31,491 nt of DNA, from the NCBI RefSeq assembly GCF_003334255.1, contig NZ_QOWU01000059.1, one strand, 5' to 3'. Of the stretch, positions 7,945 through 23,692 are shown piece after piece (within the stretch, counting starts at the first letter, position 1; each line of letters starts with the position of its first letter). The notes under the pieces were generated by a model that worked only from the letters and a program-made list of their open reading frames with translations, was not told where the DNA came from and ran no database searches. This stretch comes from Escherichia coli (lineage in GTDB: Bacteria; Pseudomonadota; Gammaproteobacteria; Enterobacterales; Enterobacteriaceae). The position numbers and the translations under genes are program-made.

Positions 7945-8528
7945 TGGCATTCAGAATGAGTGAACAAGCACGGACCATAAAAATTTATAATCTGCTGGCC
8001 GGAACTAATGAATTTATTGGTGAAGGTGACGCATATATTCCGCCTCATACAGGTCTGCCAGCAAACAGTACCGATATTGCACCACCAGATATTCCTGCTG
8101 GCTTTGTGGCTGTTTTCAACAGTGATGAGGCATCGTGGCATCTCGTTGAAGACCATCGGGGGAAAACGGTTTATGACGTAGCGTCAGGGGACGAGTTATT
8201 TATTTCTGAACTCGGTCCGTTACCGGAAAATGTTACCTGGTTATCGCCGGAAGGGGAGTTTCAGAAGTGGAACGGCACAGCCTGGGTGAAGGATACGGAA
8301 GCAGAAAAACTGTTCCGGATCCGGGAGGCGGAAGAAACAAAAAACAACCTGATGCAGGTAGCCAGTGAGCATATTGCGCCGCTTCAGGATGCTGCAGATC
8401 TGGAAATTGCAACGGAGAAAGAAACCTCATTGCTGGAAGCCTGGAAAAAGTATCGGGTGTTGCTGAACCGTGTTGATACATCAACTGCACCTGATATTGA
8501 GTGGCCTACGAACCCTGTCAGGGAGTAA
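7944..8528 (+). CDS. tfa: Tail fiber assembly protein (Tfa), 194 aa
   Basis: [34 protein letters not shown]… is near-identical to lambda Tfa as recalled. The start overlaps the stf stop in a TAATG arrangement (translational coupling). Confidence 0.92.
8367..8528 (+). repeat. Direct repeat copy A (3' end of tfa), ~160 bp
   Basis: Nucleotide alignment by eye: gagcatattgcgccgcttcaggatgctgcagatctggaaattgcaacgg… versus gagtatattgcgccactgcaggatgctgtagatctggaaatcgcaacgg… at 9416; roughly 85-90% identity, same orientation. Confidence 0.75.
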
Positions 8529-8542
8529 TCATTGGGATTATG

Positions 8543-8590
8543 CCGCAGCACGTCTTAAGCAAGAACGTGCTGCGGTTGGATGCTATTTTT
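8543..8590. terminator. Hairpin plus T-run between convergent tfa (+) and methyltransferase (-); likely bidirectional terminator
   Basis: Perfect 11-bp stem CCGCAGCACGT (8543-8553) / ACGTGCTGCGG (8565-8575), 11-nt loop, then …tgctatttttt to 8590. Confidence 0.5.
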
Positions 8591-9251
8591 TCCCTGAAGC
8601 GGAAAACATTACTACAGTACCTTGAACCTTGGTTTTAACATTCTCGAAATGCTCTGAGAGTATATGTGTTAAGCCTTCTTCGGAATCTTTTGTGTTTGAA
8701 AAGATGCCTTTCTGATTGTAAATGCGCATCAGTTTTTGACCGAAGCTATTGTGCACAACTCCATCGCCAAGAATTGTGGCTCCGTATAGAGTTCCATCGT
8801 CAGTTAAGGCCTGCGCCGCATTGCGTATTACACAGCTTTTTGTAGATATATTTCCAGGCAGGCAGTGAAGAAGGTAAAACATGGAAATGGAATCAAATTG
8901 ACCATGTAACGCCGCGGGATAAGGTTCAAAAACATCATGGCTAATTTTATGTTTAATTTTTGATTCCCCAGCCCTTGTAGATGCCGCGTTCAGGCTAGCT
9001 TCGTTCAAATCCATTAAAGATATCAGACTACTCTCAGGTACGTGAGTAAGGTAAAACCCAGTTCCAACACCAATATCCAGATGGTTGTTACCTACATGTT
9101 CCAGAAAGTGTGGAAGAAGGTGTTCCTTTGTAGGACATCCCCATGCAAGCCGATTTGATACTCCCAAAACCCACCAGTCATAAAGCTTTAGGGTAAGTGG
9201 TGTGTAAATTTTAGCCCCATCATCTGTGTTTTTTTTCATTGATTTCACCAT
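8583..9251 (-). CDS. Class I SAM-dependent methyltransferase (prophage cargo gene), 222 aa from the first ATG
   Basis: Glycine-rich SAM-binding motif I (…HLDIGVGTGFYL…) followed by an acidic residue at the end of the next beta-strand (…ISLMDLNE…). Opposite strand to the tail genes and visibly more AT-rich than its flanks. The start is ambiguous: ATG at 9249-9251 (MVKS…) or ATG at 9236-9238 (MKKNT…, preceded by GGTGA at SD spacing). Confidence 0.75.
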   Translation of the reverse strand: MVKSMKKNTDDGAKIYTPLTLKLYDWWVLGVSNRLAWGCPTKEHLLPHFLEHVGNNHLDIGVGTGFYLTHVPESSLISLMDLNEASLNAASTRAGESKIKHKISHDVFEPYPAALHGQFDSISMFYLLHCLPGNISTKSCVIRNAAQALTDDGTLYGATILGDGVVHNSFGQKLMRIYNQKGIFSNTKDSEEGLTHILSEHFENVKTKVQGTVVMFSASGKK

Positions 9252-21317: not shown

Positions 21318-22568
21318 ATGGAAAGTAAAGTAGTTGTTCCGGCACAAGGCAAGAAGATCACCCTGCAAAACGGCAAACTCAACGTTCCTGAAAATCCGAT
21401 TATCCCTTACATTGAAGGTGATGGAATCGGTGTAGATGTAACCCCAGCCATGCTGAAAGTGGTCGACGCTGCAGTCGAGAAAGCCTATAAAGGCGAGCGT
21501 AAAATCTCCTGGATGGAAATTTACACCGGTGAAAAATCCACACAGGTTTATGGTCAGGACGTCTGGCTGCCTGCTGAAACTCTTGATCTGATTCGTGAAT
21601 ATCGCGTTGCCATTAAAGGTCCGCTGACCACTCCGGTTGGTGGCGGTATTCGCTCTCTGAACGTTGCCCTGCGCCAGGAACTGGATCTCTACATCTGCCT
21701 GCGTCCGGTACGTTACTATCAGGGCACTCCAAGCCCGGTTAAACACCCTGAACTGACCGATATGGTTATCTTCCGTGAAAACTCGGAAGACATTTATGCG
21801 GGTATCGAATGGAAAGCAGACTCTGCCGACGCCGAGAAAGTGATTAAATTCCTGCGTGAAGAGATGGGGGTGAAGAAAATTCGCTTCCCGGAACATTGTG
21901 GTATCGGTATTAAGCCGTGTTCGGAAGAAGGCACCAAACGTCTGGTTCGTGCAGCGATCGAATACGCAATTGCTAACGATCGTGACTCTGTGACTCTGGT
22001 GCACAAAGGCAACATCATGAAGTTCACCGAAGGAGCGTTTAAAGACTGGGGCTACCAGCTGGCGCGTGAAGAGTTTGGCGGTGAACTGATCGACGGTGGC
22101 CCGTGGCTGAAAGTTAAAAACCCGAACACTGGCAAAGAGATCGTCATTAAAGACGTGATTGCTGATGCATTCCTGCAACAGATCCTGCTGCGTCCGGCTG
22201 AATATGATGTTATCGCCTGTATGAACCTGAACGGTGACTACATTTCTGACGCCCTGGCAGCGCAGGTTGGCGGTATCGGTATCGCCCCTGGTGCAAACAT
22301 CGGTGACGAATGCGCCCTGTTTGAAGCCACCCACGGTACTGCGCCGAAATATGCCGGTCAGGACAAAGTAAATCCTGGCTCTATTATTCTCTCCGCTGAG
22401 ATGATGCTGCGCCATATGGGTTGGACTGAAGCGGCTGACCTGATTGTTAAAGGTATGGAAGGCGCAATCAATGCCAAGACCGTAACTTATGACTTCGAAC
22501 GTCTGATGGAAGGCGCTAAGCTGCTGAAATGTTCAGAGTTTGGTGAAGCGATCATCGAAAACATGTAA
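21318..22568 (+). CDS. icd: NADP-dependent isocitrate dehydrogenase, 416 aa
   Basis: [45 protein letters not shown]… is a full-length match to E. coli Icd, with strong codon bias. Confidence 0.96.
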
Positions 22569-22591
22569 TCTCTCCATGTGTTAAATATTGA

Positions 22592-22622
22592 AACGGGCGT
22601 ATAACACGCCCGTTGTTTTATT
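22592..22622 (+). terminator. icd intrinsic terminator (AACGGGCGT-ataac-ACGCCCGTT followed by GTTTTATTTAT)
   Basis: 9-bp perfect stem followed by a T-rich run, 24 bp after the icd stop. Confidence 0.65.
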
Positions 22623-22670
22623 TATGTGGATATTATTAATAGCATATCGAGCATATTTATATGAAGCCCA

Positions 22671-22994
22671 TTACTTGAGCCCATATGGGCATATTTTTAT
22701 AATGCAACTATTATGTAAACATTTATTTGTTATTTTGCTTTCTCCTGGAGGACACTCTTGACTGCTTTTGAGTAAACTCCATAAATCCTTGTTGAATGGT
22801 GCGATGTGATAAATAGTAATAGGATATTCTTTATCCTTAAGGATAATACCAGACTTAACCGGTGTAAATATACTGCCAGGAGGGAGAAATATAGTAGATT
22901 GATACCAGATGATCATTTTCATATTACCCCATATGGCTGAAAAAGATATACCACATGTAGGTTGAATTACCGTGTCAATTACTATCCACTTCAT
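22671..22994 (-). CDS. iraM: Anti-adaptor protein IraM (RssB inhibitor; YcgW), 107 aa
   Basis: [32 protein letters not shown]… recognised as IraM; AT-rich gene immediately after icd, as in K-12 once e14 is discounted. Confidence 0.8.
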
Positions 22995-23454
22995 TTGTTA
23001 TGTCTTATCCCACGGTATTTAATATGGTTCATTAGGATGTTTATTTCTTGATTTTGCATATGAGTATATTACCCCCCCCTCAAAAAATAAATTAATTAAA
23101 ATGATGGCTTATATAAAATAAAATTTAAAGCAAGGAATCTCAATGGATGTTAAACAAAATGAGATTTTGTGAAAGCAATAAATTATTGACTTCGTTTTAG
23201 ATTTGTTTAGCTATAATGTTATACATTCAAATGACTGAACATCCTGTAATTAAAACATAGCCTTTATGCTACTTTGTACCAATTTGCTAAACATTATGGT
23301 TGCCTTTTTATATAACGATAATAATGAATATAAGCATGACATGAGAATAAGGTTTCAATTTTTGAGTTATATAGGAATGATTTAACCTGTTCCTGGCTAA
23401 AATACATATAACCGGATGATGACTAAACCAAAATACATGTGCGTTAAGTATTGA

Positions 23455-23485
23455 AACGGACGTGTGGCACGGCCGTTGTTTTTAT
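23455..23485 (+). terminator. Second, diverged copy of the icd-terminator-like hairpin (AACGGACGTG-tgg-CACGGCCGTT followed by GTTTTTATAAA)
   Basis: 9/10-bp stem then a T-run on the plus strand. About 45 bp (from ttgaaacgg…) resembles 22585-22625 at roughly 80% identity. Confidence 0.35.
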
Positions 23486-23692
23486 AAATATGTTAACCGT
23501 TATAAAATAACGTATCAAAAGTCAAGTGATCACATTTCAAATATCAAGTTGATAGTATTAGTCTGGTGATTATTTATGGGTGACAATAAAAAGACAGTAT
23601 TAATCATCCATAGAGATAGTCTCTGCACTTTTATTTCCATTATGCTAATGCCTTACTGAATTATGAAGCATTTCTTAAGTATCCAACTTTAG

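Follow-up and report, generated by a model that had tools for sequence, protein, structure and literature searches.

A duplicated icd terminator brackets the iraM cassette of Escherichia coli and is probably a fossil attachment-site duplication

The region to the right of icd was analysed in a 31,491-nt stretch of Escherichia coli DNA (contig NZ_QOWU01000059.1), here termed the window; all coordinates are positions in it. The gene order is rluE (minus strand), icd (plus), iraM (minus), ymgK (minus), ymgL (minus), ycgX (minus), bluR (minus) and bluF (minus), and iraM directly follows icd. IraM, which is under PhoPQ control at low Mg2+, belongs to the three classical anti-adaptors by which RpoS is stabilised in E. 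coli. The terminator of icd is present in two copies, termed T1 and T2, and these bracket iraM and its upstream region as an 820-bp segment. The features of the locus are as follows.

21318-22568, plus strand: icd, intact, 416 amino acids, from the open reading frame list.
22577-22619, plus strand: T1, the left copy and working icd terminator; hairpin at 22592-22614 with a 9-bp stem, loop ATAAC and T-run.
22620-23439, no strand: the iraM cassette between the repeats, 820 bp, 30% GC.
22671-22994, minus strand: iraM, 107 amino acids, an RssB anti-adaptor of the PmrD fold family (PF11183); the surviving cargo gene.
22995-23439, minus strand: iraM upstream region, 28% GC, with ymgK and a C8 homopolymer at ~23072-23079; ~74% conserved in the large-island lineage described below.
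23250-23294, minus strand: ymgK, a small open reading frame of 14 amino acids upstream of iraM.
23440-23482, plus strand: T2, the right copy, a decayed duplicate of the icd terminator; imperfect hairpin at 23455-23477 with an A-G mismatch, then T5; profile similarity over 23436-23485.
23483-23525, plus strand: right flank of T2; the same sequence follows the single terminator of iraM-less strains, and it resembles an e14-type arm.
23530-23640, minus strand: ymgL, a small open reading frame on the far side of the putative scar.
23693-24097, minus strand: ycgX (DUF1398), a phage-type gene on the far side of the putative scar.

The window represents an E. coli free of the cryptic prophage e14, with the e14/phage 21 site within icd empty, since no e14 gene is found among the window genes and the final 165 nt of icd (22404-22568) together with T1 are identical base for base to icdC and its terminator in K-12 (alignment A2). 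The e14/phage 21 insertion point inside icd, at ~22404 where these 165 nt start, is unoccupied; the annotated e14 boundary in K-12 is 165 nt upstream of the icd stop. An earlier note on this DNA had described a full-length icd with iraM next to it and no e14 genes, and the gene list and the empty site agree with that description. It had also pointed to a second copy of the icd terminator in the same orientation, ~45 bp long, ~80% identical and ~850 bp away. The repeat search closely matches these estimates: the direct repeat comprises 43 nt, identical at 36 positions (84%), with a spacing of 863 bp. The note mentioned neither the bracketing of iraM by the repeats nor the variation among strains, in which the segment between them may be present, missing or enlarged.

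The similarity between T1 and T2 reaches ~8 nt further to the left if a 2-nt indel is allowed (TACATGTG), which gives a T2 unit of ~23436-23485, and it takes in 15 non-palindromic nucleotides upstream of the stem. A degenerate 34-nt pattern with up to 3 mismatches matches only the T1 and T2 sites in the window, and no match is expected from 100 shuffles. With an nhmmer profile built from seven terminator variants and run on the window, T1 and T2 are the only plus-strand copies (E = 5e-15 and 1.8e-13), and the sole further match with E < 0.01 is the minus-strand reading of the T1 palindrome. The same search found no third or older terminator relic in the window, including further to the right; apart from minus-strand readings of the T1 and T2 palindromes, nothing scores better than E = 3.6. 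An Rfam scan of 22300-24300 at E <= 1 gave only chance-level matches (SNORD72, L20 leader, tpke11), all far under the gathering scores.

The earlier note had considered that the similarity might vanish in a proper alignment, or might reflect a widespread repeat family resembling repetitive extragenic palindromes (REP). Neither is the case. Distant-mode BLAST (E <= 10) places copies of T2 at 1-4 sites per genome (median 2) in 5,426 complete E. coli genomes, and every T2-like copy inspected adjoins icd, a displaced icd 3' fragment or a phage-borne icd 3' end; with two copies in the window, a dispersed family like REP or bacterial interspersed mosaic elements (BIME) is ruled out. The probability that T1 and T2 are alike by chance, as two hairpins, or as members of such a family is close to nil. 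All that speaks for it is that both copies are GC-rich palindromes in AT-rich DNA, which must be set against the shuffles, the nhmmer score, the shared non-palindromic nucleotides and the few, icd-associated copies. A target-site duplication made by a transposase (2-15 bp) was also rejected: the repeat measures 43-65 nt, the cassette is without a transposase, and the inverted-repeat list holds no inverted repeat at the cassette ends.

T1 has the form of a textbook terminator. Its hairpin has a folding energy of -18.4 kcal/mol on the plus strand and -17.3 kcal/mol on the minus strand, and its 61-nt context reaches -22.6 kcal/mol, with z = -4.95 relative to shuffled sequences. As T1 folds equally well on the minus strand, it probably ends iraM transcripts too. 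No variation of the T1 stem was seen in any strain or in any of the T1-type and phage 21-type copies examined.

Apart from these properties, one rearrangement was seen within T1. In GPT24-01 (locus L044, ~327-404, orthologous to window 22592-22614), the central 13 nt are exactly reverse-complemented, with GCGTGTTATACGC in place of GCGTATAACACGC. The top of the hairpin is inverted and the stem kept, apparently by a palindrome-mediated inversion.

The segment between the repeats is polymorphic. Its GC content is 30%, compared with 50% for icd, and iraM and ymgK are its only annotated genes. It is carried by ~3,880 of the 5,426 complete E. coli genomes; a megablast search with 22400-23700 gives at least 80% query coverage in 3,862 of them, and in others the coverage is ~37% and is split into two segments, separated by ~435 bp in the record. 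Within E. coli the cassettes fall into identity classes of 93-100%. In strains B2.3 and CU532-9 there is one terminator, with icd as its left flank and, as its right flank, the sequence found to the right of T2 (alignment A1). A 151-nt probe across this iraM-less junction is contiguous in 1,037 of the 5,426 genomes, among them ATCC 11775, ATCC 25922, sequence type 131 (ST131), 536 and JJ1886, all of them phylogroup B2 strains. The six iraM-less junctions that were read, from four sequence types, all have a T1-type hairpin and none is a chimaera. Their terminator is of T1 type through the hairpin, and the T2-side flank begins only after CCGTTG. The flanks of B2 and other strains differ by ~6%, and the first 24 nt of the flank adjacent to T2 are identical. 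The locus thus has three allelic states: the segment is absent, 0.86 kb long, or ~5.9 kb long, the last in 19 of the 5,426 genomes. The edges of the repeat coincide exactly with the edges of the presence/absence polymorphism.

A homopolymer tract ~80 nt upstream of the iraM start codon, in the leader or promoter (window 23072-23085), consists of C8 followed by A6. K-12 and NRZ96606 have C8 and A7, GPT24 has C5 and A7, and BL21, EC6868 and 23CRST046 have fewer than five C residues. The tract is thus of variable length.

In K-12, iraM lies 268 nt past the annotated right end of e14, with icdC and T1 between. The unit T1-iraM-T2 of K-12 is outside the right end of e14, and e14-free strains such as the source of the window retain iraM. 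iraM is not part of e14. Variation in the presence of iraM has been reported: some E. coli, including CFT073 and many uropathogenic E. coli (UPEC), do not have the gene, and the iraM/iraL family is evolutionarily labile (Hryckowian et al., 2014; PMC4045071). The passages of that paper found by term search assign iraM to the "e14 prophage" and give no boundaries. In the present analysis the cassette is delimited by the duplicated icd terminator, and iraM is placed outside e14.

The enlarged state is represented by loci L037-L039 and L026 and by the complete genome N96. This lineage was reached via the closest variants of ycgX, and its core flanks are ~96% identical to the window. The left part of the large island consists of icd, T1 with a T1-type hairpin, an e14-type arm (TTTGTTAGCCTGCTAACGGTTATCAAAATTTTATCAAAAC), a gene for a 455-amino-acid protein, a transposase fragment and trkG. 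The right part has a different terminator, an iraM homologue (iraM'), a ymgB/ariR-like gene, the iraM upstream region, a spacer of ~220 nt, a right-hand terminator copy termed T', ymgL' and ycgX. The nucleotide identity of iraM' to the iraM of the window is 80% and that of the upstream region is 74%. Relative to this lineage, the window has lost ~230 bp directly to the left of T2.

With a profile of twelve icd 3' ends, the match at T' starts at the last 15 nt of the icd coding sequence (ATCAAGAATATGTtAA...; E = 3e-9), and the match at T2 of the window begins 5 nt after the stop. As T' retains the last 15 nt of icd, the right-hand copy was probably derived from a real icd end and is not merely a similar hairpin. 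A full icdC relic upstream of T' was considered in L026 and dropped: global alignment of its 218-nt spacer with the icd tail gave a marginal result (z = 1.9, p = 0.046), no better than that of control segments, and the claim is limited to the final 15 nt.

Several genes of the large island have relatives elsewhere. Its trkG is ~90% identical to prophage trkG genes in many other E. coli genomes, including K-12-derived ones, some of which adjoin lysis genes, and matches the phage protein family phrog_1916 (PHROGs). The 455-amino-acid protein encoded directly after the e14-type arm (L037, 13558-14925, minus strand; L048, 3825-5192) displays two internal repeats; there is no Pfam match on record for it, and its PHROG matches are weak and to families of unknown function only. 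The additional gene of the ymgB/ariR family (L038, 10242-10496; L048, 8905-9165) is located directly upstream of iraM' in the same orientation and may share an operon with it. A few kb away lies the ycgZ-ymgA-ariR cluster, of which this gene is a paralogue; the K-12-type cassette has ~100 nt in place of the gene. The left end of the island was also met in a contig labelled as a Sporosarcina psychrophila metagenome-assembled genome (L013, ~193-356): an E. coli-type icd 3' end, a T1-type hairpin and the e14-type arm, 97.6% identical to L037. This is probably an enterobacterial prophage fragment mis-binned into the genome of a Firmicute.

The 3' end of icd is a known integration site. In K-12, e14 is flanked by attL and attR at icd, which gives the icd/icdC duplication (Hill et al., 1989, as summarised in PMC6379469). 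K-12 has three terminator copies: a variant of e14's own after the icd end that e14 supplies, T1 after icdC, and T2. Roughly 165 nt from the end of icd, together with a terminator that has the T1 hairpin, are carried by ~28 lambdoid phages, including phage 21 and ev017. In phage 21-type copies the homology to the host ends right after the T-run. Phage 21-type int and xis genes are found directly after icd in O157:H7 and in the type strain of E. albertii, and in ST131 and related strains a sit-carrying island lies between icd and a displaced icd fragment.

The locus in the window resembles the icd/icdC arrangement of e14 in target gene, orientation and logic, whereby the incoming element replaces the end of icd with its terminator and shifts the older copy to its right edge. 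An e14-type arm, moreover, comes after T1 in the large-island lineage. The differences are that the unit here comprises ~45-65 nt (the terminator and at most the last 15 nt of icd) and not 165 nt plus terminator, that no int or xis is present, that the bounded segment is 0.86 kb, and that it persists in e14-free strains. In comparison with phage 21-type elements (Jouyvirus), the hairpin is identical to T1 and homology stops after the T-run, at the same right limit as that of the T1/T2 repeat. However, the phages have arm sites (YYTTCCCCAAAA) and int/xis beside the terminator, and nothing similar follows T1 or precedes T2 in the window.

An arm-like sequence is found on the other side of T2. 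In local alignments the right flank of T2 resembles three e14-type arms (p = 0.001-0.007); the similarity is colinear, with repeated GTTATCAAAA-like motifs. The controls, a phage 21 arm and the flank of T1 itself, score at chance. Over 92 nt that include the terminator, T2 and its right flank are 75% identical by BLAST to the e14-type arm region. The way in which terminator and arm-like flank are joined mirrors that of e14-type phages, and the unit would therefore be older than the iraM insert, with the new DNA having entered to its left.

The gene between the repeats has phage relatives. A tblastn search finds IraM homologues (~65% identity) in 46 phage records, mostly of Stx2-converting phages. 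In the prophages examined, iraM is located in the late region of lambdoid prophages, downstream of the antiterminator gene Q, and several copies lie between stx2B or phage tRNA genes and the nanS-p esterase gene, on the strand opposite to their neighbours. A slot between Q and the lysis genes, on the opposite strand, is the classic position of a moron. IraM homologues thus occupy the position of lambdoid-phage morons, such as those adjoining stx2, and like these the chromosomal iraM has a low GC content, an upstream region of its own and an end at a terminator. Unlike the morons, it is outside any recognisable prophage and does not share its flanks with the phage copies, for which no similarity to the chromosomal cassette was found beyond the coding region. 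iraM is surviving prophage-type cargo.

The neighbouring gene ycgX may have a similar history. Homologues (70-77% amino-acid identity) are found at other loci: in Escherichia sp. E10V10 and relatives (L029-L031, 6001-6405) the gene lies beside yedE/yedF near fliDST, and in E. albertii (L032-L034, 6001-6405) it is part of a lambdoid prophage, with the terminase on one side and lysis genes on the other. ycgX is itself mobile and of phage type.

T2-type matches in IMG/VR require caution. All 28 are prophage calls that overrun into the chromosomal icdC-T1-iraM-T2-ycgX region, and 25 of the 28 loci (L053-L080) end exactly 655 nt to the right of T2, at about the far end of ycgX, which is the limit of the stored locus or contig. 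Automated prophage calls at icd count icdC-T1-iraM-T2 and ymgL-ycgX as viral and therefore inflate the number of "phage-borne" iraM genes. No free phage with a T2-type terminator was found, and in phage and IMG/VR contigs the T2-type signature was confined to the chromosomal icdC-T1-iraM-T2 context.

T2 is probably a fossil attachment-site duplication left by an element that inserted at the 3' end of icd, with the iraM cassette as its cargo. Elements that insert there bring their own icd end and terminator, and icd would stay intact while the older copy is pushed to the far side. An element with the prophage-type accessory gene iraM would have inserted at the extreme 3' end of icd. T1 would now terminate icd, and T2 would be the second copy at the right edge of the element, still on the old downstream flank. 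The element would then have lost its other genes, any integrase among them, leaving iraM and its regulatory region as a remnant of ~820 bp in most E. coli and of ~5.9 kb in the rare lineage. Freed from terminating the highly expressed icd, T2 is drifting. We infer integration, and not another route, as the cause of the duplication; the assignment of a type of integrase is equally indirect. The earlier note had offered, as one explanation, a relic of an ancient integration or excision event at icd. A relic of integration is indeed favoured, but the link to e14 did not hold: the T1-iraM-T2 unit of K-12 lies outside e14, and e14 has its own, third variant of the terminator.

Which copy is the older one is likewise a matter of interpretation. 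Most likely T2 is the displaced older icd 3' end, which is the better reading because of its arm-like right flank, the phage-type arm after T1 in the large island and the icd codons in T'. The roles may conceivably have been reversed in the same event, whereby T2 was brought by the element and T1 is the original host copy, with a crossover in the shared CCGTTGTTTT at the 3' end of the hairpin. This is unlikely, although two observations favour it: the iraM-less terminator is of T1 type throughout the hairpin, with the T2-side flank only after CCGTTG, and T2 of the window differs from it at 7 of 43 positions while the flanks are ~94% identical and alike over the first 24 nt. Yet the least-decayed T2 is only ~4 changes from T1 (a 2-nt indel, A-to-G and loop AA-to-GG), which is comparable to the flank divergence. 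In addition, it is T1 of the large island, and not T', that precedes a phage-type arm, T' has the last codons of icd and sits on the host-flank side, and the T2-type signature occurs in phage and IMG/VR contigs only in its chromosomal context.

Several points weigh against a fossil attachment site with T2 as the older copy. No integrase, excisionase or recognisable phage structural gene is present within the 0.86-kb or the 5.9-kb segment, which would suit a degraded element but is no proof of one. Among the phage records and IMG/VR, no phage carrying iraM beside an icd-type attachment region was found. The 165-nt icd duplication expected of an e14/phage 21-type crossover is not detected beside T2 or beside T', and upstream of T2 in the window there is no similarity to icd coding sequence (p = 0.15, 0.57 and 0.78). 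The single terminator of iraM-less strains is of T1 type, and an older T2 thus requires either purifying selection or phage-borne replacement to have kept T1 and the B2 copy alike. Finally, the iraM-less strains may be either ancestral or secondary deletions, with evidence on both sides.

On this last point, the occupied state may be ancestral and the B2 iraM-less allele a secondary deletion by recombination between T1 and T2, or between once-longer icd-end duplicates. This is a real possibility, if the less probable course, and it agrees with the scar model. In its favour, the identity classes within E. coli and the 80%-identical allele of the large-island lineage point to an old and diverse cassette. 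Excision of e14 by icd/icdC recombination has been seen repeatedly in the laboratory (bioRxiv 10.64898/2026.06.14.732165), and icd-end duplicates are therefore known to recombine often under such conditions. The junction of the iraM-less allele also lies within the repeat, as expected of a recombination product. However, a Citrobacter sp. has icd, one terminator and ycgX without iraM, the terminator-arm unit of e14-type phages mirrors the empty arrangement, and the six junctions are purely of T1 type. This Citrobacter locus is the only informative one among those anchored by ycgX homologues, as the E10V10 homologue is at another locus and that of E. albertii is inside a prophage. A pattern scan (TTRWAACGG-N13-CCGTTGTTTT) of species-representative genomes found E. 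albertii, with a phage 21-type remnant after icd, and chance matches; it missed E. coli itself and is uninformative on polarity.

The T2 hairpin is much weaker than that of T1. In the window allele the terminator-type hairpin (centroid structure) has -10.2 kcal/mol and is at about -10 kcal/mol on either strand. The 61-nt context has a minimum free energy of -13.4 kcal/mol on the plus strand (z = -0.29, no better than shuffles) and -9.7 kcal/mol on the minus strand (z = -1.45), and a terminator scan finds only a 5-bp sub-stem at T2.

Alleles of T2 were surveyed in nine complete genomes and the 28 IMG/VR prophage calls. In EC6868, GPT24, JNE25-001, D8, CUVET16-465, L067, L069, L072 and L074 the stem is perfect and like that of T1, with loop ATGGC, and folds at -15.3 kcal/mol on both strands. 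The allele of L059 has a single G-to-A change. That of K-12 and the window has three changes and the A-G mismatch. The BL21 allele has a C-to-A change that leaves the plus-strand stem mismatched but pairs as G-U on the minus strand (-9.9 vs -13.4 kcal/mol), and 23CRST046 has the BL21 allele with further changes. No compensatory pair change occurs among the alleles surveyed. In the large-island lineage, L037 has a 435-bp deletion (at ~8950 in the flipped locus, compared with 8515-8951 in flipped L038). T' and some of the ymgL side were lost with it, and the right-hand copy is thus dispensable there. Judged from these alleles, T2 is decaying and not conserved.

The earlier note had suggested that T2 might instead be a functional plus-strand terminator of an unannotated transcript. 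The survey speaks against this: the stem is broken in several ways, without compensation, and the T1 stem is constant. All annotated genes in the gap to the right of icd are on the minus strand, and neither a plus-strand gene nor a convincing promoter was found upstream of T2. In the Term-seq supplement of PMC7815308, as far as it was available, there is no 3' end near K-12 1,212,465-1,212,500 (no entry at 1,211,5xx-1,212,6xx); that supplement is possibly incomplete and covers few growth conditions.

In a broader form, T2 would be kept as a terminator or insulator, acting on the plus strand for an RNA that is not annotated, or else on the minus strand, where it would end ycgX-ymgL transcripts before the iraM promoter region. 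We regard this as doubtful. In iraM-less strains the lone terminator sits between the convergent icd and ymgL-ycgX genes and must therefore serve both directions, and T2 would inherit the minus-strand task after an insertion. The perfect-stem alleles are equally stable on both strands, and the BL21 change, which weakens the plus strand yet pairs as G-U on the minus strand, is a hint in the same direction, from a single data point. Against retention are the weak window hairpin in a context that folds at shuffle level, a poor U-tract on the minus strand (UUUCAAUACUU) and at least three lineages with independent, uncompensated stem-breaking changes, in addition to the deletion in L037, the missing upstream gene and the Term-seq data.

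Insertion sequences are found at the edge of these terminators. In GPT24 (L044, ~1240-1900), an annotated IS200C transposase gene is located just downstream of T2, and the inserted sequence begins right after the T2 T-run. An IS200C transposase is also present within the same region in the P31_YH1 match, and in the Citrobacter sp. (L035, 7150-6600) an IS200-like remnant lies directly after the icd terminator. The 3' edge of the terminator looks like a preferred IS200 target. A match between the e14 arm and the sequence after the Citrobacter terminator (GTTAGGCTG) was dropped, as the Citrobacter stretch closely matches the sequence beside the GPT24 IS200C transposase gene and looks like an IS200 end.

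The favoured interpretation, a scar of integration at icd, may tentatively be carried further. The region past icd could be a readable stack of successive integrations, each of which shifted the prior icd end and terminator to the right. Read from left to right, the layers in K-12 may be the e14 terminator, icdC and T1, T2, and an e14-type arm relic by ymgL-ycgX. The core stress regulator iraM, and perhaps ycgX and genes beyond, would have been domesticated as prophages decayed one after another at a single hotspot, and in lineages with a perfect stem T2 might still act as a minus-strand insulator that separates ycgX-ymgL from the iraM promoter, which is controlled by PhoP and H-NS. This extension is speculative.

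The locus is best regarded as one more scar of the e14/phage 21 kind, older and more strongly eroded, that bounds a domesticated moron-type gene. A scar of this kind is well known, no new mechanism is involved, and the interest in this respect is modest. In the passages of the literature that were searched there is no mention of the duplicated-terminator boundaries, the three allelic states or the series of T2 decay. The findings correct the published placement of iraM on e14 and provide a base-pair-level account of the absence of iraM in B2 and UPEC strains, and the exact boundaries can be used for clean allele swaps between iraM-plus and iraM-less backgrounds. The duplicated icd terminator gives the iraM cassette a concrete origin, as the probable cargo of an element at the icd hotspot, and the locus illustrates in detail how displaced terminators can remain at integration hotspots as datable scars.

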